Assembly: GCA_964431655.1 (NCBI GenBank)
Contig: CAYSKJ010000002.1
Span: forward strand, 10,214 to 70,020
Direction of reading: 5' to 3'
Source: an uncultured bacterium
Lineage (GTDB): Bacteria > CAYMEV01
Length of the DNA: 59,807 nt
Shown: one piece after another, positions 9,583 to 59,807 of the stretch
How positions within the stretch are numbered: the stretch's first letter is position 1
Layout of the letters: each line of letters begins with the position of its first letter
Notes under the pieces: model-generated
Database searches by the model: none
Told to the model about the DNA's origin: nothing
What the model saw: only the letters and a program-made list of their open reading frames with translations
Made by a program: the position numbers and the translations under genes

Positions 9583-9603
9583 GGCCCTTTTCCTGGCCTG
9601 CGG

Positions 9604-11223: not shown

Positions 11224-11429
11224 AACAATGGACTCCGGCCCTCAATGCTTTAAACATATAATATTATTTGGGAAACTCAGATTTGTCAAAATTTATTTTC
11301 CTTTGATGTTGAACGCCTGCTCAGGTTCAAATCTGCAGGGATAAGCCCTCTGGAAATATTTGATATTATTACCCCGCATGGAAAAATATCTATATTTTAT
11401 ATTGATTTATATGATATTATAATTATAAT

Positions 11430-14853: not shown

Positions 14854-14910
14854 TCCCCGAATTATTTCAGCGGGTTATTAAAAACCCTCAGAATTTCAGG
14901 AGGATGTATA

Positions 14911-25560: not shown

Positions 25561-25674
25561 TCAGCAGACTCCAGAACAGAGGAGATCAAACCTTAAGGTT
25601 AATCATCTCTTATGAAATACCGCTTTTGCAGTTAAATGAGTGTAAATGGAAAGCCTTTCAGAGAAATAAGAACC

Positions 25675-31143: not shown

Positions 31144-32250
31144 TTAACTGAATTTATCATAGAATATCAGGTCTTTCTTTACGCCGCACCTGTTTGTAAG
31201 GACATCAACACAGGCATTTATCATGCCCGGGCTTCCGCAAAGGTAGGCCTCCGCATTCTCTCCGTTTTTTACATGCTTTTCCACACATTCGGTTATAAGG
31301 CCGGTCTCTCCCTCCCAGCTGTCCGATTCCTCCGGCTGGGAAAGGGATGGAATAAAGCGGAAGTCAGGAAGCTCTTTTTCCAGCCTCTGCATCTCCTCAA
31401 CCAGGAATAAATCCCTTTTGCTCCTTGCTCCGAAGAAATAGACAGCCTTCCTGTTTATCTTCTTTTCATTCATGTCAAGAAGTATGGATTTTATTGGGGC
31501 CATGCCCGAACCGCCGGCAATGCATACAATATCTCTTTGGCTGTCCCTCAGGAAGAAATCACCGTAGGGACCGTTAATCATTACTTTCTGACCCTCTTTA
31601 AGGTATTTGTGGACATAGGTGGTGCACAGCCCGTCGGGCACATACCTTATTTCAAGCTCCACGGCATCTTTCCTGGAGGGTGGGGAAGATATTGAGTAGG
31701 CCCGGTATACCGGTTCATCGGTCATTTCATAAAGAGGCACTTCAAACTGTATGAACTGCCCTGCCTTGAAGCTGATTCCCTCACTGTTCTCCAGCTTCAG
31801 GGTAACCTGCTTAATATCATGAGTAAGATCAACCAGGGACTCCACCGCTGTCTTATACTGCTTTATATTGAAGAGTTCACGCGGTATGGTTATATCAAAG
31901 GGTTTTTTCACCTTAACCTGGCATGAAAGCCTGATGTTTTTTTCCCTCTCCCGAGGGTCTATCCATGGAAGCTCTGTCGGGAGGTATTCGCCCGCACCGC
32001 TGTTTACCTGTATTTTGCACAGGCCGCAGGAACCTTTGCCCCCGCAGGCTGAAGGAATAAAAATCTGCTTTTCCTTCAGGCTGGATAAAAGGGGCTTACC
32101 GCCATCAACCACAATCTTTTTCTCACCGTTTATGGTTATTTCCTGCTGGCCGTAGTTGGCTATGGTCCTGTCGGCAATTACCATTATTAATGCAAGAAAG
32201 GTGGTAAGGGCGGTTATTATGATTACTGTGATCAGCAGTTCAGAAAGCAT
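31144..32250 (-). CDS. nqrF: NqrF-type NADH oxidoreductase subunit (TM anchor, 2Fe-2S ferredoxin, FAD/NAD-binding domain)
   Basis: N-terminal TM helix. CGGKGSCGLCK...LSCQV (2Fe-2S), RAYSISS (FAD), GGSGMAP (NAD). Confidence 0.88.
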   Translation of the reverse strand: MLSELLITVIIITALTTFLALIMVIADRTIANYGQQEITINGEKKIVVDGGKPLLSSLKEKQIFIPSACGGKGSCGLCKIQVNSGAGEYLPTELPWIDPREREKNIRLSCQVKVKKPFDITIPRELFNIKQYKTAVESLVDLTHDIKQVTLKLENSEGISFKAGQFIQFEVPLYEMTDEPVYRAYSISSPPSRKDAVELEIRYVPDGLCTTYVHKYLKEGQKVMINGPYGDFFLRDSQRDIVCIAGGSGMAPIKSILLDMNEKKINRKAVYFFGARSKRDLFLVEEMQRLEKELPDFRFIPSLSQPEESDSWEGETGLITECVEKHVKNGENAEAYLCGSPGMINACVDVLTNRCGVKKDLIFYDKFS

Positions 32251-32261
32251 AGAATCTCCTG

Positions 32262-32855
32262 TCAGTTAATATCAATCATTCCTGAAAATCCCATGAAGGC
32301 AAGAGCCATGATACCGGCTATTATCAGGGCAATGCCTGCTCCTTCCAGCCCCCTGGGTATCCTTGCCCTGCTTGTTTTCTGCCTTATCCCTGCCATTGCC
32401 AGTATGGCAAGAAACCAGCCTATGCCTGAACCAAAGCCATAGGCAAAGGAGGAGAGAAGGCTGTATTCCCTTATAACCATGAACAGGCTCACTCCGAGAA
32501 TAGCGCAGTTGACCGTTATCAGGGGCAGGAATATGCCCAGGGAAAGGTAAAGGGTATCCGACACCCTCTCAATTATCATTTCCACTATCTGCACGAAGGC
32601 CGCTATAATGACAATAAATACAATATAGCGCAGATATTCTATATTGAAGGGTACAAGTATGTAATAATAGGCAAGGTAGTTAAGCACGCTGGTCACAGCC
32701 ATTACAAAGGTAACTGCAAACCCGAGTCCCACAGAGGTCTTAACCTCGCGGGAGACGGAAAGGAAGGAGCACATGCCGAGATAATTGGTAAGCAGGATAT
32801 TATTGGTGAATATGGCTGCAAAGAATATGGCAAAAGAAAGCATACCCTCGCTCAT
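32262..32855 (-). CDS. nqrE: NqrE/RnfA-family membrane subunit
   Basis: 197 aa, polytopic. TNNILLTNYLGMCSFLSVS signature. Confidence 0.85.
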   Translation of the reverse strand: MSEGMLSFAIFFAAIFTNNILLTNYLGMCSFLSVSREVKTSVGLGFAVTFVMAVTSVLNYLAYYYILVPFNIEYLRYIVFIVIIAAFVQIVEMIIERVSDTLYLSLGIFLPLITVNCAILGVSLFMVIREYSLLSSFAYGFGSGIGWFLAILAMAGIRQKTSRARIPRGLEGAGIALIIAGIMALAFMGFSGMIDIN

Positions 32856-33460
32856 TTCTTATCCTCCTTTATAATCACTCCCTTTATAATCCAGATAAAT
32901 ACGGCCAGCATGAAGAAGGCTCCGGGAGCCATGACCATTATGGACCAGTTTGTCCACCAGTCCCCCATCACCCTGAAACCCAGCAGGGTACCGGAACCCA
33001 TAAGCTCCCTGAATACAGATATGGTCAGAAGGACATAGGAATAGCCCAGGCCCGAGGCAAGGCCGTCAAAGAGGGAAAGCCCGGGGGGGTTGTTCAGGGC
33101 GAAGGCCTCTGCCCTTCCCATGACAATGCAGTTGGTAATGATCAGGCCCACATAAGGGCCCAGCTCGGAGGATATCTCGGGGACATAGGCCTTGAAAATG
33201 ATATCAACAATGATTACATAGCATGATATGACAAGCACCTCGACCATCATCCTTATCCGCGAGGGGATGAGCTTTCTCAGCACTGATACAGTCAGGTTGG
33301 AAAGGGAAAGGGTAAAGATAAGGCCGAAGCACATTACAAGGGTGTTTTTTACCAGGTTGGTGACTGCAAGGGTGGAGCAAATGCCAAGTATCTGGTAAAA
33401 AACAGGGTTATCCCTTAGAAGGCCCTCATAAAATATTTTGTTAATTTTCCTTTTATTCAT
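32852..33460 (-). CDS. nqrD: NqrD/RnfE-family membrane subunit
   Basis: 202 aa. RDNPVFYQILGICSTLAVT signature. 4-nt overlap with the next gene. Confidence 0.85.
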   Translation of the reverse strand: MNKRKINKIFYEGLLRDNPVFYQILGICSTLAVTNLVKNTLVMCFGLIFTLSLSNLTVSVLRKLIPSRIRMMVEVLVISCYVIIVDIIFKAYVPEISSELGPYVGLIITNCIVMGRAEAFALNNPPGLSLFDGLASGLGYSYVLLTISVFRELMGSGTLLGFRVMGDWWTNWSIMVMAPGAFFMLAVFIWIIKGVIIKEDKK

Positions 33461-34079
33461 TATTCCGGGTTTTTCCTAATTTTTCCTTCAGTTCCCGGGA
33501 TGCGCTGTTTATCATGTTCTTTACCGCCCCGGTGGTAAAGGTGGCTCCCGTAACTGCTTCAAACTGACCTTTGCCGGCATCGGTGCCCTCAGGAACAAAA
33601 TCAAGGGGTATCTGTTTACCCTCAAACTGCCTTCTGAACCACTGCTCCGTAATCCTTGCCCCAAGCCCCGGTGTCTCATTCTGGGATACAAAATCTATGC
33701 CGAGCAGGGTCTCTGCATCGGTGCCAAAGCTTATAAAGGCATCAATACTGCCCCACAGGCCCCTGCCGCGGAAAAATGTCGCATACCCCTGAAGAACCCT
33801 GCTGTCTGATTCCCGGCTGTATATCTCATAATACAGTATATTACCTTCGCTGTCAGCTTTCTCGACAATGGCTTCCCGGTAGACCCGGTCTATATCCCGG
33901 CTGGTTTCAGGGATTTGGATACCTGCGGATGAAAAAAGTCTCTGTTTTTTTACGGCTGACTCGTTTACCCTTATGGTTTCCTTTGTTAAAAGATAAACTG
34001 AGCTTACCAGGGTTATGGAGATAACAGTTATTACCGCCATAAAGCCTATGATATATGCGCTGTTCTTATCCCTGTCCAT
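33453..34079 (-). CDS. nqrC: NqrC/RnfG-family FMN-binding subunit
   Basis: 208 aa (RnfG-sized). N-terminal TM helix. Covalent-FMN motif VTGATFTT. Confidence 0.82.
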   Translation of the reverse strand: MDRDKNSAYIIGFMAVITVISITLVSSVYLLTKETIRVNESAVKKQRLFSSAGIQIPETSRDIDRVYREAIVEKADSEGNILYYEIYSRESDSRVLQGYATFFRGRGLWGSIDAFISFGTDAETLLGIDFVSQNETPGLGARITEQWFRRQFEGKQIPLDFVPEGTDAGKGQFEAVTGATFTTGAVKNMINSASRELKEKLGKTRNNE

Positions 34080-35013
34080 TCTTCTTCTTCAATGATTTTA
34101 ATCCGTAATCAATTATGGGTATGAACATATTTGCAAAAAGGATGGCAAACATTATACCCTCCGGCCATGCTGAAAACACCCTTATAAGGGTGGTCAGCAG
34201 GCCTATAATAAGGCCGTAGATGAGCTTTCCCTCCTTCAGCGATGATGCGGATACGGGGTCCGTAGCCATGAAGAATATACCCAGCATAAACCCTCCGGAG
34301 AACAATGCATGTATACAGGGTATGGAACCTGCAATGCCGGCAAGGTTAAGAGCAAAATTCATCGCCAGCATTCCGAATATGCCTGATATAACTATCCTGT
34401 AGTCGGCTACCCTCCTGTATATCAGGAATACCCCCCCGAGCAGGAGGAGAAGGGCGCTGGTCTCACCGAGACAGCCGGAAATATTACCGGTAAAAACCCT
34501 GAGAAGGGAGACGGATTCGCCCTTTTCAAGCATTGCAAGTGGAGTAGCCTGGGTCAGTGCATCACTGCTGTACCGGATAAATCCCCCAAAACCATGGCTG
34601 AAGGGCTCAACCCACCTGTTGGTCAGGAAATTGCCGAAGGATACATATATAAAAGCCCTGCCGACCAGGGCAGGGTTAAATGCATTCTTCCCGAACCCCC
34701 CGAAGACCATCTTGCCGAAAACAACCCCTGCCGCTATGCCGACTGCGGCCATCCAGAAGGGTATGGTAGGGGGCAGGGTCATGACATATAAGAGGCATGT
34801 AACAAATACGGAGGAATGGACAGGCTCTCTGTATTGCCGGGCAAACATGTACTCGCTGATATAGCCTGCTGTTACCACCACAGCAAGAAGTGCAAGGCCC
34901 CTCAGGCCGAAAAAGTATATGCCTGAGATAAATGCAGGGACAAGGGAATAAAGGACAAGCTTCATAGGCCTGACCCATTTTATATTAAACAGTCTCAGGT
35001 AAAGCTCGCTCAT
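34066..35013 (-). CDS. nqrB: NqrB/RnfD-family membrane subunit
   Basis: 315 aa (RnfD-sized). GGFGKNAFNPALVGRAF, DALTQATPL (FMN-threonine region), FFMATDPVS. Confidence 0.82.
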   Translation of the reverse strand: MSELYLRLFNIKWVRPMKLVLYSLVPAFISGIYFFGLRGLALLAVVVTAGYISEYMFARQYREPVHSSVFVTCLLYVMTLPPTIPFWMAAVGIAAGVVFGKMVFGGFGKNAFNPALVGRAFIYVSFGNFLTNRWVEPFSHGFGGFIRYSSDALTQATPLAMLEKGESVSLLRVFTGNISGCLGETSALLLLLGGVFLIYRRVADYRIVISGIFGMLAMNFALNLAGIAGSIPCIHALFSGGFMLGIFFMATDPVSASSLKEGKLIYGLIIGLLTTLIRVFSAWPEGIMFAILFANMFIPIIDYGLKSLKKKNGQG

Positions 35014-47864: not shown

Positions 47865-48063
47865 ATCCTTATGCTCCAGGGAACAAAAATCTATTAATGC
47901 CTAATCTGCAATACCTGGTGAAGATATATATGATGGCTTTGCAACAGAAAGGGCAGAAATCTCTGAGTCCCTGACTGTTATTACCTATACGTTTTTCCCC
48001 GGTATTTTCTGGCCCGGCCTATAGCTTATGACACCGGTGATGCCCTTAAAATACCAAAATCTG

Positions 48064-48603
48064 TCATTTGACTGTTTCCCATGCCCTTATACCGCCTTTA
48101 AGACGTACAGGCTTCATATCATATACCTGTCTGAGCATTTCAAGGTAGGGATATTTGCCATCGTAGGCATACCATCCGTCATTGGTGTAATTATAGTGTA
48201 TATATTCCCAGACTGCAGTCCGGTCAATCACCCAGCCTTCCGGTATCCTGAAGAGAAAAACCGGCCCCAGTGAGCTGTCCTCAGGGAAATACACTATTGC
48301 CAGGTCAGAAACAATAAAGGTTCTGGTTTTTGTATCAAATTTGTCTGCGGTATCTTTGTACCTTTCTGACCTTTTAATCTCAGAACCCCTTTCCCTCCAT
48401 CTTTTGTCAAAAATAGGCAGGTCATAGCAGTAGAGGCCCTGCTTCATAAGGTCAAGCTCAAGCCTTACTGACTTCTCAGGGGAAGGCTGGGGGACAAATA
48501 TCCCCTGCATCTCCTCTATACTGCAGATGCTGTTTCCCTTGCTGTCCAGACACCCGGAGGCAAGAAGAATCAAAGCCATTATCAGTATATATTTATTTAT
48601 CAT
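48064..48603 (-). CDS. Lipoprotein of unknown function
   Basis: Lipobox LLASGC after a short hydrophobic leader. No recognised domain. Confidence 0.6.
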   Translation of the reverse strand: MINKYILIMALILLASGCLDSKGNSICSIEEMQGIFVPQPSPEKSVRLELDLMKQGLYCYDLPIFDKRWRERGSEIKRSERYKDTADKFDTKTRTFIVSDLAIVYFPEDSSLGPVFLFRIPEGWVIDRTAVWEYIHYNYTNDGWYAYDGKYPYLEMLRQVYDMKPVRLKGGIRAWETVK

Positions 48604-48630
48604 CCATCTTTTAGGCAGGCTGAATGAAGC

Positions 48631-49836
48631 CTACCACTCAACCTCATCATTATTTCTGACAATGCCTTCAGGAAACGGGTTATCCTTGCCAAAACAGTAT
48701 AGAGTGTCCATTTCTTCAATGATAACAGTGTTTTCATTTAAGGTGCCTTCAGCATTCAGAGCTTTTTTAATATCCAGGCCCAGATGCTCTGCAAGAAATG
48801 GATAAACGGCAGTTCTGCTGCTGAGTCCATAGCCGTGAATATCCTCATAAAGGTGAACATTTTTAATATTGTCTTCTTTATTGTACAGGCTGTAGATATA
48901 CTTTATATGAGGGCATTCTACAGCTGGGGTATTTTTTGTCCAGTCCCCAGAGACTGATACCAGGAGCATAGGTCTCGGGGCTGCACATGCGGCTATTTCT
49001 ACATTATTCGTCTGGAAATGTTCTGATTTATGAACCGGCATACCGCTTTCACATATACAGCCTCCAAAAAAATATGCTGAAACCATATCCACAGGTACTG
49101 AAACTGATACACGTTCATCCACTGCGGCAAGAAAGATTGCCTGGGTCGCTCCGCCTGAGGCACCGGTAATACCGATTCTTTCAGGGTCAGCACCCATGTA
49201 CAGGAGAAAGTCCAGACAGCGTATGCTGTTCCATAGCTGAAGTTTCAGCGTATCCGGATGCTCATGGCGCCATCCCAGCTCCTTCATCTGGCCGTACCCA
49301 ACCATATCATAGGATAACACCATAGCTCCCATCCTTGCAATAACTGCACAGCGCTTTTGGACATCCGGATGATAGCGTCCATACTCCCCGGGTTTTGTCC
49401 AGTGCCCGTGGGGGCTTAAAACCCCTGCCATCCGGCCTTCATGATCAATGGGAACATAGAGGCTTCCTGTTACATAAACCCCAGGCAGGCTCTGAAAAGC
49501 CACATTCTGAACATAATAACCGTAATAATTCATCCTATCGCTGAATACAGGCTTAAAAGGGCATTTATCAGGAAATATTTCAAGGCCGGCCCCCTTAAGG
49601 ATATGGTTCCGTATATCCTCCGATCGCCTTTCCCATTCACTGGAAGTGGTATAGGCTGTTTTCATACAGGAAAGGAATTCCCTGCCCTGGTCCTCGGTGA
49701 AGTAAAAGCCTGAACAGAGATCAGGATTGTCCGTTTCTAACGGGTTTCTGGCGGTTTTAATGCAGCATGCAAACATCAGGACCGCCGAAAGGCATATAAA
49801 AAGGAGAGTTATATCTTTCCCCAAGCCTTCCTCCAT
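48631..49836 (-). CDS. Exported alpha/beta-hydrolase (esterase-like)
   Basis: Signal/lipobox-like LMFACC. Nucleophile elbow ITGASGGATQA (GxSxG). PHGHW and the GDW..N region are typical of acetyl-esterase-like folds. Confidence 0.65.
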   Translation of the reverse strand: MEEGLGKDITLLFICLSAVLMFACCIKTARNPLETDNPDLCSGFYFTEDQGREFLSCMKTAYTTSSEWERRSEDIRNHILKGAGLEIFPDKCPFKPVFSDRMNYYGYYVQNVAFQSLPGVYVTGSLYVPIDHEGRMAGVLSPHGHWTKPGEYGRYHPDVQKRCAVIARMGAMVLSYDMVGYGQMKELGWRHEHPDTLKLQLWNSIRCLDFLLYMGADPERIGITGASGGATQAIFLAAVDERVSVSVPVDMVSAYFFGGCICESGMPVHKSEHFQTNNVEIAACAAPRPMLLVSVSGDWTKNTPAVECPHIKYIYSLYNKEDNIKNVHLYEDIHGYGLSSRTAVYPFLAEHLGLDIKKALNAEGTLNENTVIIEEMDTLYCFGKDNPFPEGIVRNNDEVEW

Positions 49837-49864
49837 GGCTCAAAATCGGAAAAATGACGGGAGT

Positions 49865-49893
49865 GAAGCAAAAAGAACCGTCCCTTCTGCTTC
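49865..49893 (-). repeat. Third copy of the GAAGCA-type hairpin element, overlapping the etfA stop codon
   Basis: Plus strand GAAGCAAAAAGAACCGTCCCTTCTGCTTC, compared with GAAGCAAAAAGATCCGTCCCTTTTGCTTC at 20430-20458 and 20469-20497 (2 mismatches in 29). Confidence 0.8.
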
Positions 49894-50872
49894 ACTGCCT
49901 GAGCTTTTTCAGCTCCTCTATGAATACCGGGAGAAACTCGAACAAGTCATCTACGATGCCGTAGTCGCATATCTCAAAGATGGGCGCTTCGGGATCTTTG
50001 TTTACTGCAAGGATATACCTGGAAGGATTCATTCCGACCTGATGCTGGACAGCACCGCTTATCCCCAGGGCGATATAAAGGGTAGGAGCCACTATCTTTC
50101 CTGTCTGGCCTACCTGGTTTGAAAAGGATGCCCATCCCTGGTCTACTACCACCCTCGAAGCTCCAAGGCATGCCCTGCCATCAAAGAGGTCAATAAGCTC
50201 CCTGACCCTGGAGATATTCTCCCTCTCCTGGATGCCCCTTCCTACAGAAACCACTATATCTGCATCCTTGATATCAATACCCTTTGGCAGGCCTCCGTCA
50301 TGATCATCCAGGCCTTCGAATATCCAGTCTATGGAAGGGTTGACAAGCTCATACCCGGTTATCTGTATTTCTGATACACCGTCCCGGGCAGGCTTTACAG
50401 GAAAAGTCTTCTGCCTGAAGGATGCTGCAAAGGGTTTTTCAGCATTGATACCGGCAATGACTTTGTCGCCGTAGAAGGGCTTTTTTAAAATTATTTCATC
50501 ATCTATGCTGATACCCGTACAGTTTTCATAGAATTCACATCCCTTTTCAAAGGCTATGGAAGACAGTATACTATTGTTCCAGTCCGACGCTGTTCCGAAG
50601 TAGCTGTCATATTCCCGGTCCTTTACCAGTTCAGCCACTGTTGCCATGTGGTGTTCCGCCTGGCTGATATCCATCGGCACCTTCGGGATATAAAGACTGG
50701 CAACAGAATAGCCCTTAAGCATTTCTATCTGGTCATCATCCAGGATATCAGGGGAGTATGCAGTTACAGCCGTCTCCTTTCCGAAGGTATCCCTGATATG
50801 ACTTAAAATCTCAAAAACAGACTTTTTAATCTTTTTATCCGCGGTATCAATCAATAAAAATATTTCTTTCAT
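49892..50872 (-). CDS. etfA: Electron transfer flavoprotein alpha subunit
   Basis: PTLYIALGISGAVQHQVGM FAD motif, ILAVNKDPEAPIF, DYGIVDDLFE. Confidence 0.9.
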   Translation of the reverse strand: MKEIFLLIDTADKKIKKSVFEILSHIRDTFGKETAVTAYSPDILDDDQIEMLKGYSVASLYIPKVPMDISQAEHHMATVAELVKDREYDSYFGTASDWNNSILSSIAFEKGCEFYENCTGISIDDEIILKKPFYGDKVIAGINAEKPFAASFRQKTFPVKPARDGVSEIQITGYELVNPSIDWIFEGLDDHDGGLPKGIDIKDADIVVSVGRGIQERENISRVRELIDLFDGRACLGASRVVVDQGWASFSNQVGQTGKIVAPTLYIALGISGAVQHQVGMNPSRYILAVNKDPEAPIFEICDYGIVDDLFEFLPVFIEELKKLRQ

Positions 50873-50885
50873 CTGATTTTTCCCC

Positions 50886-51653
50886 CTACATTACCTTGAT
50901 TTCTTCAGATATGATCCGGGCTATCCTCCTGGCAATATCGGGTCTTTCACCCTTAATCACCTCGGATTTCCTGCTGACGGAAGGCACTGAAAGGCTGTTG
51001 ACGCTGACAAGGGAGTTCATAAAGCTGTCATTGCCGACAGGTATTATATTCACCTGCTTTTTCTTTGCCTTCATGATATTCTTGAGCGACGGGTAGCGGG
51101 GTTCATTAAGACCCTTTTCACAGCATACAATAATAGGGGGCTTCCCCTTCCGAACTAACCTGCAGTTTTCAAATATTGATTTCATCTCGGCTGTACCGGT
51201 CTCCGGGTCATATTCAAAGGACACTGCCGACGGCATAACCCTGCAGTTAAGCTGTAAACCGAGGTAAAGGGGAAGAGAAGAGACATCATAATCAATGCTC
51301 TTCTTGCCTGTGAAGATAAATTCATAACCCTTATCCCCCATATTATCAGCAAATATCCTGGCAGAAGCTGTTTCTGATACATTATGCCAGCTGTTTGTTG
51401 AAAGCCTGAAGGCTTCATCAGCCCCTATACTAAGAGCCCATTTAAGCTGTTTGTCTGCTGTTTCAGGTCCGAGGCAGTAGACATCAACGGTTGAATCAGC
51501 TGTTTTTTCCTTCAGCCTCATGGCTTCTTCCACTGCATACTCGTCATAGGGGTTGACTATAAAATCTATGTCCCCCCGGTTTATATCCTTGTCCTGTATC
51601 CTCAGCCTGGCCTCTGTATCAGGCACACTCCTGATAATTGCCGCAATTTTCAT
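50886..51653 (-). CDS. etfB: Electron transfer flavoprotein beta subunit
   Basis: MKIAAIIRSVPD, VNPYDEYAVEEAMRLKE. The ATG overlaps the TGA of the upstream gene (ATGA), and AGGAGGA lies inside the upstream gene's last codons. Confidence 0.9.
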   Translation of the reverse strand: MKIAAIIRSVPDTEARLRIQDKDINRGDIDFIVNPYDEYAVEEAMRLKEKTADSTVDVYCLGPETADKQLKWALSIGADEAFRLSTNSWHNVSETASARIFADNMGDKGYEFIFTGKKSIDYDVSSLPLYLGLQLNCRVMPSAVSFEYDPETGTAEMKSIFENCRLVRKGKPPIIVCCEKGLNEPRYPSLKNIMKAKKKQVNIIPVGNDSFMNSLVSVNSLSVPSVSRKSEVIKGERPDIARRIARIISEEIKVM

Positions 51654-54600
51654 AATATCCTCCTTATCTGCCTGAGTTTATATTTTTTTATAAATTCATC
51701 CATTTTTACCTTCAATGTATTTGTCTGGTATATTTCCCTGGCCTGAATACCGCAGTCCTCAGATTCCAGCGGGCTTTCATCAGCCTGCTTGCCCTTTTCC
51801 AGCTCATCAAGAAGCATTTTGAGAATTTCTGTCCTGCTGTAGGAGGGCCGGTGGAAGGGAATACTTTCCAGCTTAAGACTGCTTTTGTCAAAAAGGGTAA
51901 AACTGCCGCTGTTATGGAAAAAGGGAGGCAGTTTTACATAAGGGTCCGGGGTGCCGGGATTAAACTCATCCAGGAAGAACCTGGCCTGAAGGCTGTCGGC
52001 AAAATCTTTAAGCCTGCTGTCAAGATAGGGATTTTCCCCGTAAAAAATCCCTGCAGAAATATCCCTGTCCAGCGGACTGTAAAATCCTGCATCATACAGC
52101 CCCTTTAAGTTTATGCCGTCGTCAAAAAGGTGAAGCCTGGCTTCTTTTGTACCCTCAAGAGCCATGCGGAGCATGTCGAGGAGAATAACAGCATTGACAC
52201 TGCAGTAATTGGCTGCCAGGGAAATCCTGCTGTGTTTTTCCAGGGCTTCTAGTATTTTCCCGGCATCCTGCTGTATCTTCCCGGAAACAGCCTTTGAGCC
52301 TGTATCCCTTATTGTCTGGTACCCGGGATGCAATGCAACTGACTCTTCAGCTCCAAGCTTCCTTAAAACGGTGTAGATCAGGATCTCCAGGTCTTTATCA
52401 CTTTCTGCATCCACAGTGTCAAAACCAGAGTTCCATATCCTTTCTGCATCTCCGCAAAGGACGATAATGTCCTTCTGCTGTGCTTTCATCCCCCTGAGAA
52501 TTACATCCATAACTGGATTGCCCTGATTCCTGTCGGGATTCAAAGCTATAACCAGGTCAGCCTCCTTTATGAGTTCAGGTTTCTGAGCATGGGCAAGGAC
52601 CTCCTTTGGTAAATAGGCACTAAGTATACCCGGTGACCTTATCCCCAGAGCGCGTGCGAGTTTTCTTAGGAGAACTCCTTCCTCATTGGTGGTGTAAGGA
52701 GAAAGATACAGGCCTGTCTTTTTACCCTTGATGGCTTTAATTTTATAAGCCATTTCTTTTATCTGCTCTTTCTGAATATCCCTTATATCCTGCTGTGTAT
52801 AATCTTCATGAAGCCTTGTAAGGCCGAACCTTCCCTTTAAGCACAGACTCCGGGGAGTGAGGGCATGATCTTCGGCCCGGATGCTTAAGGGGGTACCTGC
52901 CTTTGAAAGGTAGCTTATATTGCACAGGTTGGAGCATAATATGCAGTTGCTTTTATGGCTTTCAAAAACGAAGGGTCCGGGCATCCGGCTGGGATACTGC
53001 TCGCTGAGGGCTCCAACCGGGCAAATATCCAGACATTCTCCGCAGCTTATGCAGTCTGATTCAAGCAGAGGCCTGTCAAGTACCGGCTGTATCTCTGCAT
53101 TGAAGCCTCTTTTTGTAAAGCTTATAGCCCACACGCCCCTCACTTCATCGCAGACTCTAACGCATTTACCGCATAGTATGCATTTATTAAGCTCATAGTT
53201 TATAAATGGATGAACTTCTTTTAGGGGCTGGTCACGGAATTCAGCCCTGTTTTTGAAATCGCTCAGGTTAATTTTATGCTCGCCGGCATACTTCTTAAGA
53301 TCGCAGTCAAATACTGCCAGGCATCCGCAGCTAAGGCACCTGCCTGTTTCCTTAAAGATGTCTTCGGCCTTGAGTCCCAGCTCCACCTCCTGAAAAGAGC
53401 CTTCCCTGTCATTTAAGGGCAGTTCAGGCATAACAGCGCGTTTCCCTGCATTTTCAACCTCTGGTACATATTCTTTGTCAGAAAGGTTCTTTCGCAGGGA
53501 ATAGAAATCTCCCCTGTTTTCAATGAAGGCTTTTCCTGAAAGAAAGAGGGATATGCCGTTTGCTGCCTTTCTGCCTTCCGCGATAGCATTTATGGCTATC
53601 CACGGGCCTGTAACTATGTCCCCTCCCGCAAAGATTCCCGGGAGACTGGTCTGCAGGTTGTGCTCGTCAGCTTCAAAGGTATTCCATTTTGTATAAGCAA
53701 GCTTTTCCTCCAGTGGCTCATCTTCTTTCTGCCTGGCCAGCTTCAGAAAGGCCAGGTCTGTCTGCTGGCCTATGGCTGAGATAACCATATCGCATGCCAA
53801 AAGGTGTTCGCTGTTTTCCACAGGCACAGGCCTTCTTCTGCCTGAGGCATCAGGTTCTCCAAGCTCCATTTTTATGCAGTTCAGACCCAGGAATATGCCC
53901 TTGCTGTCAATTTCAGCTGAAACAGGTGCGGAAAGAAAATGCATCTCTACACCCTCTTTTTCAGCCTCTGCTATTTCCATATCATTAGCCGGCATCTCTT
54001 TTCTTGTCCTCCTGTAAAGAAGGATAACCTTGTCAGCGCCGAGCCTTAAAGCAGTTCTGGAACAGTCTATGGCAGTATTTCCTCCTCCGATTATCACCAC
54101 TTTTTTGCCCATGATTTCATAAACACCTTTTTCAAAATCCCGGAGAAATATTATCCCTTCCAGTATATCGGGATGCTCTTCGCCCTTTATCCTCATGGAT
54201 GTGCTTTTCTGGCTCCCTATGCCAATAAATACCGCATCAAAATCCCTTTTTAGGCTTTTCAGGGTAAAATCCCTGCCCCATTCCCGGCCGGTATGTATTT
54301 TCACACCCATATCGGTAATAAAAGATATTTCCTTTGCCAGTACATCCCTGGGAAGCCTGTAGGCGGGTATACCCCATCTGAGCATGCCCCCGGGCTCCGG
54401 CAGTCTTTCAAAAATCTCGCATTCAAAACCCTGCAGGCTGAGGTAATAGCCAGCAGAAAGGCCGGCAGGCCCTGCGCCGATAATAGCCACCCTTTTTCCA
54501 TTGGGCTTTTCAGGCTCTTTAATCTTTCTGTATCTGGATACCATGTCAATATCAGCGCAGTATCTTTTCAGGAAGTCTATTGCCAGGCCCTCATCCACAT

Positions 54601-55084
54601 TATTCCTCCTGCAGGCAAGCTCACAGGGCCTGGTACAGACCCTTCCGCATACCAGGGGCAATGGGTTTGTCTCCTTGATCAGTTCAATCGCCTCCTCATA
54701 TTTGCCCATGGAAGCAAGGGCGATATAGCCCTGGATATCAACCCCGGCAGGGCATTCCTGTGTGCAGGGGGCAATACAGTCCGCATAATGGTTTGACAAT
54801 ATCAGTTCAAGGGCTGTTTTCCTCGCTTCCATAACCTTCGGGGTATTAGTCCTTATAACCATGTTATCGGCCACCGGGGTTGCACAGGAGGGTTTAAGGG
54901 TACGGAAACCTTCGATTTCCACTACGCATAAAAAACAGCTGCCGTAGGGTTTCAGCCTTTCATCATGGCACAGGGTCGGGATATCATCAATATTATTTTC
55001 CCTGATAACCTCAAGAACTGTTTTACCTGGGAGGGATGTATATTCTTTCTGGTTTATATTGAGTTTTATTTTATTCATTGTCAT
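51650..55084 (-). CDS. 1144-aa fusion: 2Fe-2S ferredoxin, GltD/NfnB-like FAD/NAD(P)H oxidoreductase, NuoG-type 4Fe-4S clusters and a formate-dehydrogenase-alpha-like domain
   Basis: LCHDERLKPYGSCFLCVVEI (2Fe-2S). CIAPCTQECPAGVDIQGYI and CGRVCTRPCELACRR (GltD clusters). VAIIGAGPAGLSAGYYL and VVIIGGGNTAIDCSR (two dinucleotide folds). CILCGKCVRVCDEV and CISCGECLDICPVGAL. CILCSNLCNISY...SLCLKGRFG (Mo-bisPGD-type 4Fe-4S). The roughly 380-aa tail has no motifs I recognise. Confidence 0.8.
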   Translation of the reverse strand: MTMNKIKLNINQKEYTSLPGKTVLEVIRENNIDDIPTLCHDERLKPYGSCFLCVVEIEGFRTLKPSCATPVADNMVIRTNTPKVMEARKTALELILSNHYADCIAPCTQECPAGVDIQGYIALASMGKYEEAIELIKETNPLPLVCGRVCTRPCELACRRNNVDEGLAIDFLKRYCADIDMVSRYRKIKEPEKPNGKRVAIIGAGPAGLSAGYYLSLQGFECEIFERLPEPGGMLRWGIPAYRLPRDVLAKEISFITDMGVKIHTGREWGRDFTLKSLKRDFDAVFIGIGSQKSTSMRIKGEEHPDILEGIIFLRDFEKGVYEIMGKKVVIIGGGNTAIDCSRTALRLGADKVILLYRRTRKEMPANDMEIAEAEKEGVEMHFLSAPVSAEIDSKGIFLGLNCIKMELGEPDASGRRRPVPVENSEHLLACDMVISAIGQQTDLAFLKLARQKEDEPLEEKLAYTKWNTFEADEHNLQTSLPGIFAGGDIVTGPWIAINAIAEGRKAANGISLFLSGKAFIENRGDFYSLRKNLSDKEYVPEVENAGKRAVMPELPLNDREGSFQEVELGLKAEDIFKETGRCLSCGCLAVFDCDLKKYAGEHKINLSDFKNRAEFRDQPLKEVHPFINYELNKCILCGKCVRVCDEVRGVWAISFTKRGFNAEIQPVLDRPLLESDCISCGECLDICPVGALSEQYPSRMPGPFVFESHKSNCILCSNLCNISYLSKAGTPLSIRAEDHALTPRSLCLKGRFGLTRLHEDYTQQDIRDIQKEQIKEMAYKIKAIKGKKTGLYLSPYTTNEEGVLLRKLARALGIRSPGILSAYLPKEVLAHAQKPELIKEADLVIALNPDRNQGNPVMDVILRGMKAQQKDIIVLCGDAERIWNSGFDTVDAESDKDLEILIYTVLRKLGAEESVALHPGYQTIRDTGSKAVSGKIQQDAGKILEALEKHSRISLAANYCSVNAVILLDMLRMALEGTKEARLHLFDDGINLKGLYDAGFYSPLDRDISAGIFYGENPYLDSRLKDFADSLQARFFLDEFNPGTPDPYVKLPPFFHNSGSFTLFDKSSLKLESIPFHRPSYSRTEILKMLLDELEKGKQADESPLESEDCGIQAREIYQTNTLKVKMDEFIKKYKLRQIRRIL

Positions 55085-55090
55085 ATCCCC

Positions 55091-56896
55091 TTATTCTTTT
55101 ATAATTGCAGAAAACCTGCAGCTATCAAGGCATTTACCGCACTTGATGCAACTGGACTGGTCAATCATGTGAAGTTTTTTTACCTCTCCGCTTATTGCGT
55201 CAACCGGGCATACCTTTGAGCACAGCGTGCATCCCACGCACCGGTCTGCAACTATTTTGAAAGTTATAAGGCTTTTGCAGGATTTAGCCGGGCATTTCTT
55301 ATTATATATATGTTCCTCGTATTCCTCTCTGAAATATCTGAGGGTGGTGAGTACAGGGTTCGGCGCAGTCTGTCCCAGACCGCACAGGCTGTTTTCCTTT
55401 ATCTGGGATGCCAGTTTCTCAAGGATTTCCAGATCCTGCTCTTCCCCACGGCCTTCGGTAATCCTCTGAAGTATCTCCTCCATCCTCTTGGTGCCTATTC
55501 TGCAGAAGGTGCATTTCCCGCAGCTCTCCTTCTGAGTAAAGCTCAGAAAATACTTGGCTACCTCCACCATGCATGTATCCTCATCCATAACGATGAGTCC
55601 GCCGGACCCCATAATAGCACCGGTAGCTGTTATTGACTCATAATCTATGGTAGTATCCCCCAGGCGTGCCGGAATACAGCCCCCGGACGGACCTCCCATC
55701 TGCACAGCCTTGAACTTCCGGTCTCCAGCAATGCCGTCGCAAATATCATATACAATTTCATTTATGGTAATACCCATGGGTACTTCAACCAGACCGCTTC
55801 TCTTTATCTTGCCGGCCATGGCAAATACCTTGGTTCCCCTGCTCTTTTCTGTTCCGTATTTAGCATACTCACGGGCGCCATTAAGGATTATCCAGGGTAT
55901 GTTTGCGTAGGTCTCGACATTATTTATATTTGTGGGTTTTCCCCACAGGCCCTTTTCCGCCGGGAAGGGAGGCCTTATAACCGGCATTCCCCTTTTACCC
56001 TCAATAGATGCAATAAGGGCAGTCTCCTCACCGCAGACAAAAGCACCGGCGCCTTCCTTTATATGTATGTCAAAATTAAAATCTGTTCCAAGAATGCCCT
56101 GCCCCAGAAAACCCCTTTCTCTGGAGTCTTCCAGCGCTTTTCTCAGCCTCTGGACTGCCTTGGGGTATTCGGCCCTGACATAAATGTACCCTTCATCCGC
56201 CCCTATGGCATAGGCACATATCGTCATGCCCTCCAGTATGCTGTGGGGGTCCCCTTCCAGGGTGCTCCTGTCCATGAATGCTCCGGGATCACCTTCATCC
56301 GCATTGCAGATTACATATTTTTTGTCGCCCTGGTTTTTTCTGGCAAGGCTCCATTTAAGACCTGTGGGAAAACCCCCGCCTCCCCTGCCCCGCAGGCCGG
56401 ATTCTTTTACCTCCGTTATAACCGATTCCCAGGACATATTCTTTAGAGCCTTTTCCAGGGCTTTATAACCATTATCCCCGATATAATCATCTATGGATTC
56501 CGGATTTATAGTTCCTGCCCTTCCCAAAACTATTTTTACCTGCTTTTTAAAGAAACTGTCGTGGGCAGTCTCGAAACTACCGGAACTGACAATATATTGT
56601 TCAACAGGTATGCTGTTTACCAGGTGGCTTTCTATTATATTGTCCAGTTTTTTCTCATCAAGATTTCCGTAAAGATAGTTCCCGTTCTGGTCAATAACCT
56701 CCACCAGGGGTTCATTGTAGCACATGCCTATGCATCCTGTAGGTATGAGCCGGACTTTGCCCTCCGTCACCAGGGGATGGAGGGAAAGCTTTTCATAAAG
56801 AACCTGTGCGCCTGCTGATACCCCGCAGCTTGATAAGCCTACTTTAACTTGCATTTCTGTCACCTGACCTTTCTTTGTCTTCATAATAGCTGTCAA
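55091..56896 (-). CDS. NuoF/HydB-like NADH-binding FMN Fe-S subunit (bifurcating Bfu B-type)
   Basis: N-terminal thioredoxin-like 2Fe-2S (SSCGVSAG...GCIGMC), GLRGRGGGGFPTGLKW, GEETALIASIEG, ESCGKCTFCRIG, and a C-terminal 2x[4Fe-4S] (CVGCTLCSKVCP, CIKCGKCLDSC). The likely true start is the ATG at 56854, after AGGTGA. Confidence 0.88.
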   Translation of the reverse strand: MTAIMKTKKGQVTEMQVKVGLSSCGVSAGAQVLYEKLSLHPLVTEGKVRLIPTGCIGMCYNEPLVEVIDQNGNYLYGNLDEKKLDNIIESHLVNSIPVEQYIVSSGSFETAHDSFFKKQVKIVLGRAGTINPESIDDYIGDNGYKALEKALKNMSWESVITEVKESGLRGRGGGGFPTGLKWSLARKNQGDKKYVICNADEGDPGAFMDRSTLEGDPHSILEGMTICAYAIGADEGYIYVRAEYPKAVQRLRKALEDSRERGFLGQGILGTDFNFDIHIKEGAGAFVCGEETALIASIEGKRGMPVIRPPFPAEKGLWGKPTNINNVETYANIPWIILNGAREYAKYGTEKSRGTKVFAMAGKIKRSGLVEVPMGITINEIVYDICDGIAGDRKFKAVQMGGPSGGCIPARLGDTTIDYESITATGAIMGSGGLIVMDEDTCMVEVAKYFLSFTQKESCGKCTFCRIGTKRMEEILQRITEGRGEEQDLEILEKLASQIKENSLCGLGQTAPNPVLTTLRYFREEYEEHIYNKKCPAKSCKSLITFKIVADRCVGCTLCSKVCPVDAISGEVKKLHMIDQSSCIKCGKCLDSCRFSAIIKE

Positions 56897-57347
56897 TAAT
56901 CTTTTTCAGCTGTTTCGGGGTAAGCCGGCCATATGTCCTGTCATTTATCATTATTACCGGCGCAAGAGAACAGCATCCGAGACAGGCCACGGTAAGGAGG
57001 GTAAACATGCCGTCCTGGGTTGTTTCTCCGTCCTTTGCCTTCAGAAGACCTGACAATTCTTCATAGATCTGCTCCGAGCTGTTTATATGACAGGCGGTAC
57101 CGTCACATACCCTTATAACATTTTTCCCGAGGGGAATAAGCCTGAACTGGCTGTAAAATGTTATAACACCATAGATATGGCTACGGGATACCCGGGTCCA
57201 TTCTGATATCTCTTCAATTGCCTTTTCAGGAATATAGCTGAAGCTTTCCTGAACGTGCTGAAGAAGGGGTATGACGGACTTAGGGCTTTTTTCATAACCT
57301 GAGCTGGCGATGCACTCAGCTATGCTGTCTGTTTTAGCATGGTTCAT
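56844..57347 (-). CDS. NuoE/HydC-like 2Fe-2S subunit
   Basis: 167 aa. CDGTACH...VACLGCCSLAPV thioredoxin-like 2Fe-2S motif. Confidence 0.88.
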   Translation of the reverse strand: MNHAKTDSIAECIASSGYEKSPKSVIPLLQHVQESFSYIPEKAIEEISEWTRVSRSHIYGVITFYSQFRLIPLGKNVIRVCDGTACHINSSEQIYEELSGLLKAKDGETTQDGMFTLLTVACLGCCSLAPVIMINDRTYGRLTPKQLKKIIDSYYEDKERSGDRNAS

Positions 57348-57425
57348 TGCATAAAACCTCCGATTCAGGGTTAATAATCAATACAGGTTTTGCTATGGAT
57401 TTTTATAGCATTTATTTGGGATCAT

Positions 57426-58709
57426 TCAAAAATAAATCATTGAAATAAGGTCGAAAAGATTGTTTTTTATATTTGCTTTTGAACTTTTCATTGATTTATC
57501 CAGTTCAGATATCCTGATTACTATATCCTGAAGCCTTTCTGCATTGTGCTTCCGGGCCCATCGGAAGACCTGATAGGCACGGTAGGGGTGGGATGCAAGA
57601 ATATTTACGCCTGCACTGCTGATCCATCTGCCCTCTTTTTTCATCTGCTCCGCAATACCTGGATAGGTATTGGCCTTAAAATAATTATAGCCCCTTTTTT
57701 CTATGTCTTTCAGATTATACCTGGAAATAATCTCATTTGAAAAAAGGGCATGGTGCAGGAAGGATGTCATCTGGGGAAGCAGTACAAATATGAAACTTTC
57801 CCTGTCTATTCCTTCAATAATAAGGCTCCCCCGGTAGATGTCCATTATAATACCGAAGGATGTATTAAAATCCGAATCGAATATCTGGTTTATTACATGA
57901 AATATATCTGCAGTGGATTCCTTTTTGACATTTTCTAATATGCATTCGTCATCAATAATACTGTCTTTTACCAGTGATTTAAGCTTGCCAAGCTCATTTT
58001 TGATTGCATCTATCTTGTTGGAGGTGAATTCGCAGAGCAGAGAAAGCGCATGGTCAGTGATCCTGATACCATTAGTCCTGGCATATTCAGAGATAAAACT
58101 CTTTACCGAAAGGTTGACCGGCTGATAACCGAACCCCTTTTTCCCCTTTACCAGGTCAAGCCTTACGGATATTTTCAGCATATTTTCCATTCTGCCTTTA
58201 TCATCCCTTTCAGACGCGACAATAAATACCAGATTGTATTCATTGGTGCGGGCCAGGAGAAACTTTTCAACATCCACCGTGCTTTCCGAAATATCCATGT
58301 CAAGAAGGTCCTGGAGCCTTTGCCTTTTGGAAAAAACCACAATCTTATCAAGCCCCAGCTCTGAATACGTCTTTTTATCCATTCTGTTTACAGCTTCATC
58401 GATGAATTCCTGGATATCTGTATCCCCTGCAAGGTTATACAGGTATTTAACAGCTCCCCGGGGATTTTTATCCAGGGACAGGCTTTTTGATTCCCTCTTC
58501 TTTTCCGCAGTAAACAGGTTCTCGACAATAAAAGCCCTTTTTACCCTTACCAGAGGGTTTGATGATATTTCGAATAAAAGCTTTTTTGTCCCGGTCTGAT
58601 TTATATCATATTCAAGAATCTGTTTTATATCAGGGTACATTGCCTCTATCTTGTTCTTCAAGAGATCAATGCTGTCAGTTTCGACAATATGTAGAAAGCT
58701 ATTCTTCAT
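57426..58709 (-). CDS. holA: Probable DNA polymerase III delta subunit (HolA-like) with N-terminal extension
   Basis: IDAIKNELGKLKSLV, ADIFHVINQIFDSDFNTSFGIIMDIY and SHPYRAYQVFRWARKHNAERLQDIVIRISELDKSMKS resemble HolA domain II/III signatures. At 427 aa it is longer than typical. Confidence 0.5.
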   Translation of the reverse strand: MKNSFLHIVETDSIDLLKNKIEAMYPDIKQILEYDINQTGTKKLLFEISSNPLVRVKRAFIVENLFTAEKKRESKSLSLDKNPRGAVKYLYNLAGDTDIQEFIDEAVNRMDKKTYSELGLDKIVVFSKRQRLQDLLDMDISESTVDVEKFLLARTNEYNLVFIVASERDDKGRMENMLKISVRLDLVKGKKGFGYQPVNLSVKSFISEYARTNGIRITDHALSLLCEFTSNKIDAIKNELGKLKSLVKDSIIDDECILENVKKESTADIFHVINQIFDSDFNTSFGIIMDIYRGSLIIEGIDRESFIFVLLPQMTSFLHHALFSNEIISRYNLKDIEKRGYNYFKANTYPGIAEQMKKEGRWISSAGVNILASHPYRAYQVFRWARKHNAERLQDIVIRISELDKSMKSSKANIKNNLFDLISMIYF

Positions 58710-59703
58710 CTTGCATTTTGTTTACTTCTTTTAGTTTCAGGTTTTCCTTGTTAAAAAACAGGAAACCCACAAGAATCATAGGCAGCATCTGAGAAATATG
58801 CAGGACTATGGCAAAGCTCCCAATGCTTGATATATTAGGGGAATATACCTTCAGGGCAAACTTCGCTGCTGCATGGTAGGGACCTATATAACCAGGGCTT
58901 GATGGCAGGGTGATGCCTATGGCAATCAGTATTACAGTCAGCATCGCTGCCCTTAAAGGCAGTTCCTTCAGGTCTTCAAAGCAGAAAAAGGCATAATAGA
59001 CATTAAGTATTACAGGAAGCCACACCCAGACGGAAAGCCACATCAGCTTCAAAAGGAATCTGGGGCTTTTAATGCAGTGGGATGCTTCCAGAAAGCGCTT
59101 CAGGATATTCTCTGCCTTTTCTCTGCCGTTTTCGTTCAGAAAAAAGAGCATCTTTCTGAAAATCCTGCTGAAAAAGTCTTCCTTAATCAGAATTATGAAG
59201 AAAAGCACAAAGGGAATGGTCGCCGCTACAGAGCCCAGGAGGAGGGTATTTCTGAGCTGTGCAGACACTGAATCATTCTTTATTAGAGTAATTATGAAAA
59301 ATGCAATAAAAATTACCAGCATGAAAAATAGATCCAGTATCCTTTCCAGAAAAACCAGGCCTATGGATATTGAGAAACTGGATCTGGTCTTCTGATTGAT
59401 AGTCCTTGCCTTGAGAAACTCACCCAGTCTTGCGGGAAGGACGCCGTTTCCGAAATAGCCTATCATAATTGCTGAGAAGGAATCCCAGAACCGCAGGGAG
59501 ACCTTCTTCTGCGCCATTACCCTGAAACGGTATGCCCTTATGAACAGTCCAAGCCACATTACCGCCTGGCTGGGGACCAGCCACCAGTAATTGGCTTCTT
59601 TAAGCGCATTTTTTATTTCTCCGAAGTCCATGTTGTGAAAGGTTATATACAGGAAAAAAGCGCTTATAACCAGTCCGAGAATTAGTTTTATATAATTTTT
59701 CAT
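58699..59703 (-). CDS. Flippase-like / lysylphosphatidylglycerol-synthase-TM-region family (UPF0104) membrane protein
   Basis: About 8 TM helices. GNGVLPARLGEFLKA signature. Confidence 0.7.
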   Translation of the reverse strand: MKNYIKLILGLVISAFFLYITFHNMDFGEIKNALKEANYWWLVPSQAVMWLGLFIRAYRFRVMAQKKVSLRFWDSFSAIMIGYFGNGVLPARLGEFLKARTINQKTRSSFSISIGLVFLERILDLFFMLVIFIAFFIITLIKNDSVSAQLRNTLLLGSVAATIPFVLFFIILIKEDFFSRIFRKMLFFLNENGREKAENILKRFLEASHCIKSPRFLLKLMWLSVWVWLPVILNVYYAFFCFEDLKELPLRAAMLTVILIAIGITLPSSPGYIGPYHAAAKFALKVYSPNISSIGSFAIVLHISQMLPMILVGFLFFNKENLKLKEVNKMQDEE

Positions 59704-59807
59704 ATTTCAAAAATCTTGCCCGGATTCATTATACCCCTGGGGTCAAAAATCCTTTTAATTTGTTTCATGATATCTATGACTCTGCAGTCCAGCTGATATT
59801 TTAAAAA
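59700..59807 (-). CDS. C-terminal 35 codons of an FAD-linked oxidase (GlcD / D-lactate dehydrogenase-like); N-terminus lies outside the window
   Basis: Hand translation gives ...IDIMKQIKRIFDPRGIMNPGKIFEI*, the typical FAD-oxidase C-terminal FDP.GI.NPGK motif. Its TGA overlaps the ATG of the next gene. Confidence 0.65.
   Translation of the reverse strand, partial: FLKYQLDCRVIDIMKQIKRIFDPRGIMNPGKIFEI

Follow-up and report, generated by a model that had tools for sequence, protein, structure and literature searches.

The three-subunit enzymes StnABC of Sporomusa ovata (8oh5) and NfnABC of Caldicellulosiruptor saccharolyticus (9bov) are members of the Bfu family of flavin-based electron-bifurcating enzymes, and the Stn papers describe clusters of three genes. 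In the structures of their large subunits StnC and NfnA, two [4Fe-4S] clusters in the Fdh-like domain constitute a side branch that is a dead end, the role of which is unknown (PMC10482914; PMC11829005). Type 2 and type 3 Bfu enzymes possess accessory subunits (Wor-, Por-, Codh-, Bam-, and Mbh-Bfu), and these extra subunits, whose genes lie in the BfuABC cluster, have been proposed to feed electrons of a further substrate into BfuA (Schut et al. 2022). The partners listed in the 2022 Bfu catalogue are hydrogenase, Nfn, Fdh, F420, Codh, Wor, Bam, Rub, Por, Mbh, and Nuo; an electron-transferring flavoprotein (Etf) is not among them. Etf proteins are found in other bifurcating complexes, i.e. Bcd-EtfAB, CarCDE, Ldh-EtfAB (LctBCD), and EtfABCX, where EtfBA is encoded together with partners handling NAD(P)H and ferredoxin, as at the locus described here. 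Bifurcating EtfB proteins carry the recognition motif DGDTAQVGP for the bifurcating FAD (b-FAD), which is missing from non-bifurcating EtfB proteins (PMC9232219).

In this study, we analyzed a stretch of 59,807 nucleotides (nt) from an uncultured, Sumerlaeota-like bacterium (GTDB lineage Bacteria; CAYMEV01), covering positions 10,214 to 70,020 of contig CAYSKJ010000002.1 (assembly GCA_964431655.1) and referred to as the window, in which the genes of an NfnABC-type enzyme are directly followed by etfB and etfA. This continuation into etfBA is unreported for Stn/Nfn-Bfu clusters and was not seen in outgroup loci. A preliminary description, made from the sequence alone, had known of no earlier account of the arrangement, and our literature search likewise found no published account of an NfnABC operon with etfBA; the closest printed idea sets etfAB beside hydB-hdrAC genes in another candidate phylum. 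The pairing is new to the literature and its distribution is narrow. All five open reading frames (ORFs) were recovered on the minus strand at the positions and in the order first reported (Table 1), and the overlaps and gaps at their junctions, read directly from the sequence, were also as first reported. Since the ORFs are long and their family matches very strong, the gene calls are not due to chance.

Table 1. Coordinates of the genes, domains, motifs, and border regions of the five-gene cluster (positions in the window)
Feature	Position	Strand	Remarks
NuoE-like 2Fe-2S_thioredx subunit (BfuC; = StnA/NfnC)	56844..57347	minus	167 amino acids (aa); PF01257, E 2.6e-50
NuoF-like FMN/NAD(H) subunit (BfuB; StnB/NfnB)	55091..56854	minus	587 aa from ATG 56854
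NfnA/StnC-like fusion (BfuA)	51650..55084	minus	1144 aa; Pfam, PDB sequence matches, fold match
GltD-like module of fusion	53528..54778	minus	fusion residues 103-519; Fer4_20 + Pyr_redox_2
FAD GxGxxG motif of fusion	54461-54478	minus	invariant, 44 homologues
NADPH motif YRRTRKEMPA of fusion	53987-54016	minus	YRRTxxEMPA invariant, 44 homologues
NuoG-type [4Fe-4S] Cys motifs of fusion	52823..53338	minus	C583-C594, C635-C645, C678-C688, C714/717/721/748
Fdh-like C-terminal domain of fusion	51653..52806	minus	residues ~760-1144; fold match to NfnA/StnC
EtfB	50886..51653	minus	255 aa; PF01012 ETF; motif comparison, neighbor-joining (NJ) tree
EtfA	49892..50872	minus	326 aa; ETF_alpha, E 1.7e-30
Intergenic region 5′ of nuoE	57348..57425	minus	78 nt; sole promoter-sized gap in the neighborhood
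Region 3′ of etfA	49837..49891	minus	55 nt; weak GAAGCA...TGCTTC hairpin, not called as terminator
LctD/GlcD-like FAD-dependent 2-hydroxyacid dehydrogenase, 3′ end	59700..59807	minus	full 459-aa gene at 8625-10004 of locus L168

By every sequence feature examined, the products of the first three genes are an NfnABC/StnABC (Nfn-Bfu) enzyme, with the activity predicted accordingly, and their initial assignment to the Nfn type of the Bfu family was borne out by the sequence matches and by the fold of the large subunit. The locus shares with StnABC and NfnABC the same three subunits, gene order, domains, and cofactor motifs; the order nuoE-like, nuoF-like, large subunit was also found in the related loci L001 and L171 and in the outgroup loci L088 and L172. 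The NuoE-like protein scored 163 bits against NF005722 NuoE (NCBIfam, cut-off 141) and is 76% identical to its L001 counterpart. In the NuoF-like protein, Pfam detected (E 5e-50) Complex1_51K, NADH_4Fe-4S, and a C-terminal Fer4 match, the latter representing a 2x[4Fe-4S] domain at residues 545-599; an N-terminal 2Fe-2S domain is also present, and the Cys motifs are readable in the translation. Such N-terminal [2Fe-2S] and C-terminal 2x[4Fe-4S] domains on the NuoF-like subunit are hallmarks of bifurcating BfuB. Residues 1-584 matched 9bov_B (861 bits) and 8oh5_B (856 bits) end to end in phmmer searches, and 9n5u_B was matched as well.

The third gene encodes a fusion composed of an N-terminal [2Fe-2S] domain, a GltD-like FAD/NADPH module, NuoG-type [4Fe-4S] clusters, and a degenerate Fdh-like C-terminal domain (Fer2_4, Fer4_20, Pyr_redox_2, Fer4_Nqo3, and a weak Molybdop_Fe4S4 match in Pfam). 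By sequence, residues 4-815 matched 9bov_A (664 bits) and 8oh5_C (611 bits). All cluster-binding Cys residues are invariant in the two alignments A2 and A3; C714/717/721/748 correspond to the side-branch clusters of NfnA and StnC, the ligands of which are therefore conserved in this fusion. The Fdh-like domain has lost recognizable sequence similarity: when its C-terminal 384 aa were compared with PDB sequences, a marginal match to Nqo3 (E 0.81) was the sole result. A separate homologue search with the C-terminal 445 aa missed even the parent protein, so that negatives obtained with this fragment query are unreliable and the full-length query was used instead. The AlphaFold2 model of the fusion, built from 44 homologues (predicted local distance difference test score 82.9), matched the large subunits over their full length, including the Fdh-like domain and the side-branch clusters (Foldseek TMq 0.86 and TMt 0.83 for whole 9bov_A NfnA; TMq 0.82 and TMt 0.80 for whole 8oh5_C StnC); because the model superposes on both whole proteins, the Fdh-like fold is considered to be retained. 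The fusions of the clade are 1131-1144 aa long and devoid of PF00384, whereas the other homologues listed mostly have ~1240-1260 aa and contain PF00384 and PF04879. In comparison with StnC/NfnA, the subunit studied here is ~30 aa shorter, and the difference from its closest homologues in the database amounts to ~100 aa.

The five genes probably form one operon. With ATG 56854 as the start codon of nuoF, the genes at the nuoE/nuoF junction overlap by 11 nt; the alternative TTG at 56896 would yield a protein of 601 aa. The ATG start is favored because the nuoF orthologues of L001 and L171 also encode 587 aa. Between nuoF and the fusion gene, the TAA stop codon is followed by 6 nt and the next ATG, while the fusion gene and etfB share an ATGA overlap at 51650-51653 that is preceded at a distance of 6 nt by AGGAGG. 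The gap of 13 nt between etfB and etfA contains GGGGGA. The gap upstream of nuoE is of similar size (80-89 nt) in L001 and L171. When 47900-59807 was scanned for promoter and terminator consensus sequences, the counts did not exceed those of shuffled sequences, and no usefully placed site was found at the operon borders.

The preliminary description had regarded EtfAB as a second bifurcating module and had proposed to classify it with published group-specific motifs. This classification gave a different result: according to its sequence, the Etf is of the non-bifurcating group-1 type rather than of the bifurcating group 2, with one redox-active FAD predicted in EtfA and no b-FAD site predicted in EtfB. 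At the position of the b-FAD motif, residues 121-129 of EtfB (51267-51293) read DYDVSSLPL (alignment to 1efp_B, 1efv_B, and 5ol2_B). In a motif comparison of 82 loci, all EtfB proteins of the clade had DYD[IVM]SS[LF]P[LF] or DHDSSALPF, whereas dozens of outgroup EtfB proteins carried DGDT[AG]QVGP, so the scan was able to detect the motif where present. The recognition loop of EtfB, LNEPRYPSLKNIMKAKKK (51057-51110), is of the LNEPRY-x-[ST]L-x-NIMKAKKK type and nearly identical to the group-1 loops of human (LNEPRYATLPNIMKAKKK) and Paracoccus (LNEPRYASLPNIMKAKKK) EtfB, and in an NJ tree, a simple distance method, the clade grouped with the human and Paracoccus non-bifurcating references. The nucleotide site of EtfB, at which AMP rather than FAD would be bound in a group-1 type Etf, lacks the FAD motif, yet it is also unlike the D[DN]D[CM]N[QA]TGQ of these two references. 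In EtfA, the alpha-FAD site is intact (GASRVVVDQGW, VGQTGKIV, and PTLYIALGISGAVQHQVG at 50033-50086; 126 bits in the alignment with human ETFA), and domain I is divergent, with just 24 bits for the ETF domain. No ferredoxin domain and no Cys motif were present in the translation of the 326-aa EtfA.

The combination of the two gene sets was found in one narrow clade. Among 5.8 billion protein clusters, EtfA has six close relatives (45-68% identity), all others being at most 40% identical. With 51-67% identity and lengths of 1131-1142 aa, four proteins are closely related to the fusion; beyond these, identity drops sharply to ~46%. The Etf clade (7 clusters) and the clade of shortened fusions (5 clusters) occur together, and both proteins bear clade-specific derived features. 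In 185,579 species-representative genomes, the clade Etf was detected once, namely in a metagenome-assembled genome of Candidatus Sumerlaeota, where the whole arrangement is present. Altogether, the fusion-etfB(-etfA) junction with gaps below 20 nt was observed in six sequence-distinct lineages (51-100% fusion identity). Apart from the window, these are L001 (67% fusion identity), L173 (62%), L174 (58%), L171/L005 (51%), and L004 (contig ending within the fusion; 61% identity to the EtfA of the window), with fusion-etfB gaps of 9-17 nt. The genes 3′ of etfA differ between the window, L001, L004, and L171 while the junction is kept. In L001, a protein of 179 aa without family match (11126-11668; 61% identity) is encoded directly 3′ of etfA; in the window, a 401-aa alpha/beta-hydrolase-like ORF with a weak match to glucuronyl esterase separates etfA from the gene of this protein (both within 48064-49836); the latter is absent 3′ of etfA in L171 and L004.

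Outside the clade, the two gene sets were found apart. Within 10 kb of 79 outgroup Etf loci, no gene for NuoE, NuoF, or the fusion was found. The outgroup NfnABC loci L088, L089, and L172 are without Etf, and L090 ends ~100 nt past the fusion match and is uninformative in this respect. A metagenome scan with the fusion alignment yielded 80 loci, 77 of which were GltD-only relatives and three true NfnABC loci in which no Etf was seen. The nearest outgroup EtfA (39-40% identity; L006, of the Desulfobacterales/syntroph EtfAB type) adjoins its presumed acceptor, a Fer4/CCG oxidoreductase, and Etf being encoded beside a redox partner is therefore the usual pattern. L006 and the locus studied here have in common the non-bifurcating EtfB motif and the position of Etf beside a presumed acceptor; the redox neighbor is a soluble NfnABC-type complex encoded upstream here and an Fe-S/CCG oxidoreductase encoded downstream there.

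On the same strand, upstream of the gap that precedes nuoE, lie the genes thyX, a DUF4438 gene, and genes for a thioredoxin reductase, an aspartate aminotransferase, a GlcD-family dehydrogenase, a flippase-like protein (LPG_synthase_TM), and a holA-like protein. The genes from the aminotransferase to the holA-like protein mutually overlap by 4-14 nt (window 57426-59703; L168:8625-12278). At the edge of the window, the preliminary description had noted a GlcD-like fragment separated from the cluster by two unrelated genes. The two intervening genes were confirmed, but what looked like a fragment is the end of a complete LctD-like gene, which both the window lineage and L001 carry 2.4 kb upstream. 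The best PDB match of its product is LctD (7qh2_C; 285 bits, E 1e-83), a component of the Acetobacterium woodii Ldh-EtfAB complex, and no GlcE or GlcF partner genes are found beside it. A function as alkyldihydroxyacetone phosphate synthase, an idea raised by the flippase-like neighbor, was rejected (98 bits versus 218-285 bits for LctD, glycolate oxidase, and D-lactate dehydrogenase). Judged from its sequence relationships, the LctD-like dehydrogenase is a credible possible client of Etf that lies outside the conserved cluster. As stated in the preliminary description, the cluster is not adjoined by genes for an acyl-CoA dehydrogenase, FixCX, or an Fe-S oxidoreductase, and none was detected among the window ORFs of at least 200 aa; an ETF:quinone oxidoreductase or Fe-S/CCG oxidoreductase was found neither among these ORFs nor in the flanking sequence. 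Farther away, the minus strand harbors a Na+-NQR/Rnf-type run (31144-35013) encoding NQR2_RnfD_RnfE, FMN_bind, and Rnf-Nqr proteins and an NqrF-like protein (Fer2 + FAD_binding_6 + NAD_binding_1), which is syntenic in L001 and suggests that this organism has a membrane ion pump linked to NADH or ferredoxin.

Taking these observations together, we favor, with a probability of about 0.4, the explanation that the Etf is a dedicated one-electron carrier of the NfnABC-type complex and connects the pools of NAD(P)H and ferredoxin with flavoprotein dehydrogenases. NADPH would react at the GltD-like FAD in the large subunit, from which an Fe-S chain would run to the NuoF/NuoE core, and the FMN-plus-cluster site of this core would couple NAD(H) and ferredoxin. 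Etf would dock on the large subunit, speculatively at the [4Fe-4S] side branch of the Fdh-like domain that is otherwise a dead end, and would receive electrons, for example, from the upstream LctD-like 2-hydroxyacid dehydrogenase or from acyl-CoA dehydrogenases encoded elsewhere. The redox couples linked to Etf (lactate/pyruvate about -190 mV, acyl-CoA/enoyl-CoA about -10 mV; PMC5861303, PMC9304861) lie far above NAD(P)H, and their oxidation would therefore need the co-oxidation of reduced ferredoxin. The bifurcation or confurcation for which bifurcating Etfs use their own b-FAD would thus be provided by the Bfu core, according to the overall reaction substrate-H2 + reduced ferredoxin + 2 NAD(P)+ <-> product + oxidized ferredoxin + 2 NAD(P)H. 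A functional coupling of this kind is plausible from the genomic evidence, which establishes the gene identities, order, spacing, motif states, and distribution; we infer complex formation, docking site, direction, and stoichiometry. The more specific version, a new class of Bfu enzyme or "Etf-Bfu" in which Etf is a bound subunit or dedicated NfnABC partner tapping the side branch while the BfuBC core bifurcates or confurcates for Etf-linked substrates such as 2-hydroxyacids or acyl-CoAs, appears rather unlikely.

The proposed overall chemistry would be identical to that of the bifurcating Etf complexes, that is, as in Ldh-EtfAB or as in Bcd-EtfAB in reverse, and an LctD-like gene is near in some lineages. 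The difference would lie in the bifurcating site, which in a system whose EtfB lacks the b-FAD motif would be the BfuBC core; furthermore, EtfA is without ferredoxin domain here, and no dehydrogenase gene is adjacent to or conserved with the cluster. In LctBCD, lctD is contiguous with etfBA, whereas here the LctD-like gene is two genes away. Compared with the type 2 and type 3 Bfu enzymes, none of those listed uses Etf, and the BfuA described here has its own NADPH module, so that Etf would be a second entry or exit.

The strongest competing explanation is that two independent enzymes are encoded on one transcript, NfnABC acting as in Sporomusa and Caldicellulosiruptor to balance NADPH, NADH, and ferredoxin, and EtfAB serving ordinary flavoprotein dehydrogenases and passing electrons to an acceptor encoded elsewhere, e.g. 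an ETF:quinone oxidoreductase leading to the quinone pool. The adjacency would then be a lineage-specific accident kept by a compact genome. Several observations speak for this explanation and against a dedicated carrier. The preliminary description had taken the translational coupling of Etf and Bfu genes as a hint at a combined complex; the AGGAGG and the ATGA overlap are real, but such spacing is habitual in this genome and a complex does not follow from it. As the functionally mixed genes upstream overlap by 4-14 nt as well, the ATGA overlap speaks only weakly for a complex. The whole region is syntenic among relatives (rpsT, thyX, trxB-like, holA-like, aconitase, helicase, and NQR genes), and the conserved gene order may partly reflect shared ancestry. 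The linkage of etfBA to the Bfu genes was kept in six of seven informative lineages; in the seventh, L175, a clade-type etfBA pair with the same motif (EtfB 59% and EtfA 51% identical) has no Bfu genes upstream and stands alone behind an AT-rich intergenic region of 558 nt and divergent genes. Moreover, no fused Etf-Bfu protein was seen in the search of the 5.8 billion protein clusters, the characterized Stn and Nfn-Bfu enzymes function with three subunits, and the group-1 recognition loop is typical of promiscuous Etfs. The Na+-NQR-type genes in the window suggest quinone-linked respiration and may leave room for a quinone-linked Etf route elsewhere in the genome. Finally, the Fdh-like domain proposed for docking is the least conserved part of the fusion and evolves fastest, with blocks of 60 aa being only 15-40% identical to P0125. 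What an accidental adjacency explains less well is that the fusion-etfB junction is kept in six lineages though the flanks change, that both gene sets are clade-specific variants which co-occur almost exclusively, and that no Etf acceptor gene is nearby, unlike in the case of the nearest outgroup EtfA. We therefore regard independent enzymes as a serious possibility with somewhat less than an even chance.

Some features of the assemblies concern the stand-alone etfBA. In L175 (1409-3712; also in L176), a TTGACA-17-TATTAT match is located in the intergenic region, and the divergent genes encode Sm_multidrug_ex and DUF1847 proteins. L175 and L173 originate from the same sample (SRR32456884), so the L175 etfBA could be a second copy or belong to a different strain. 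L002 and L003 were considered as further stand-alone pairs and discarded, as their 5′ ends overlap the tails of L173 and L174 by 26-30 nt with 100% identity, indicating assembly breaks. The contigs of related samples all break at one identical stretch of 26-30 nt in etfB (FIVNPYD region); this sequence is common to several co-occurring strains, and assemblies fragment there.

Another explanation would combine the LctD-like protein, Etf, and Bfu to a lactate or 2-hydroxyacid system replacing the confurcating Ldh-EtfAB complex (hydroxyacid + reduced ferredoxin + 2 NAD(P)+ -> oxoacid + 2 NAD(P)H). The relationship to the A. woodii LctD, the position of the gene on the same strand in the window lineage and L001, and the lack of GlcE/GlcF genes beside it are in accordance with such a system. 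It is nevertheless improbable, since L171 has an intact five-gene cluster but neither the LctD-like gene nor the aminotransferase gene at the corresponding position, the flippase-like and holA-like genes intervene, the LctD-like gene is packed with that of the aspartate aminotransferase, the ferredoxin domain of LctC has no counterpart in EtfA, and the b-FAD motif is missing from EtfB. Two joined bifurcating modules, i.e. the Bfu core plus a bifurcating EtfAB that oxidizes NADH at a b-FAD, would fit two tightly linked gene sets from families with bifurcating members, but are hardly credible given that DGDTAQVGP is missing in all EtfB proteins of the clade while many outgroup EtfB proteins of the same scan have it, that the clade groups with non-bifurcating references, and that EtfA has no ferredoxin domain.

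Further observations were made in the surrounding sequence. With 75.9 bits, the holA-like protein of 427 aa stays below the cut-off of 80; its additional N-terminal region gave a weak lipase match. In L168 (4121-6482), an unusually long ThyX (491 aa, two matched stretches) is encoded by a gene overlapping the DUF4438 gene, a pair that is kept in L171. Two tandem giant paralogues of 1406 and 1324 aa are encoded on the minus strand at 21340-29649 of the window; in both, long TPR arrays are combined with an AAA_16 ATPase domain and a degenerate adenylate/guanylate cyclase segment. Genes for riboflavin biosynthesis, encoding RibD, a riboflavin synthase of the lumazine-binding type, and RibBA, are clustered at 13139-16113; their presence in the same window as several flavoenzyme genes is probably coincidental.

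If Etf and NfnABC are independent enzymes, the locus represents an ordinary NfnABC operon with passenger etfBA genes in a little-studied candidate phylum. If an Etf-Bfu exists, two of the four known families of flavin-based electron-bifurcating enzymes would for the first time be physically linked. If Etf exchanges electrons with the complex, Bfu cores could serve high-potential, Etf-borne substrates besides H2, formate, NADPH, and the remaining substrates of the catalogue. The dead-end clusters of StnC and NfnA would thereby gain a possible function, an anaerobe or facultative anaerobe without ETF:quinone oxidoreductase would have a route for the reoxidation of Etf, and the locus would be a natural experiment in which the b-FAD of Etf has been replaced by a different bifurcating site.

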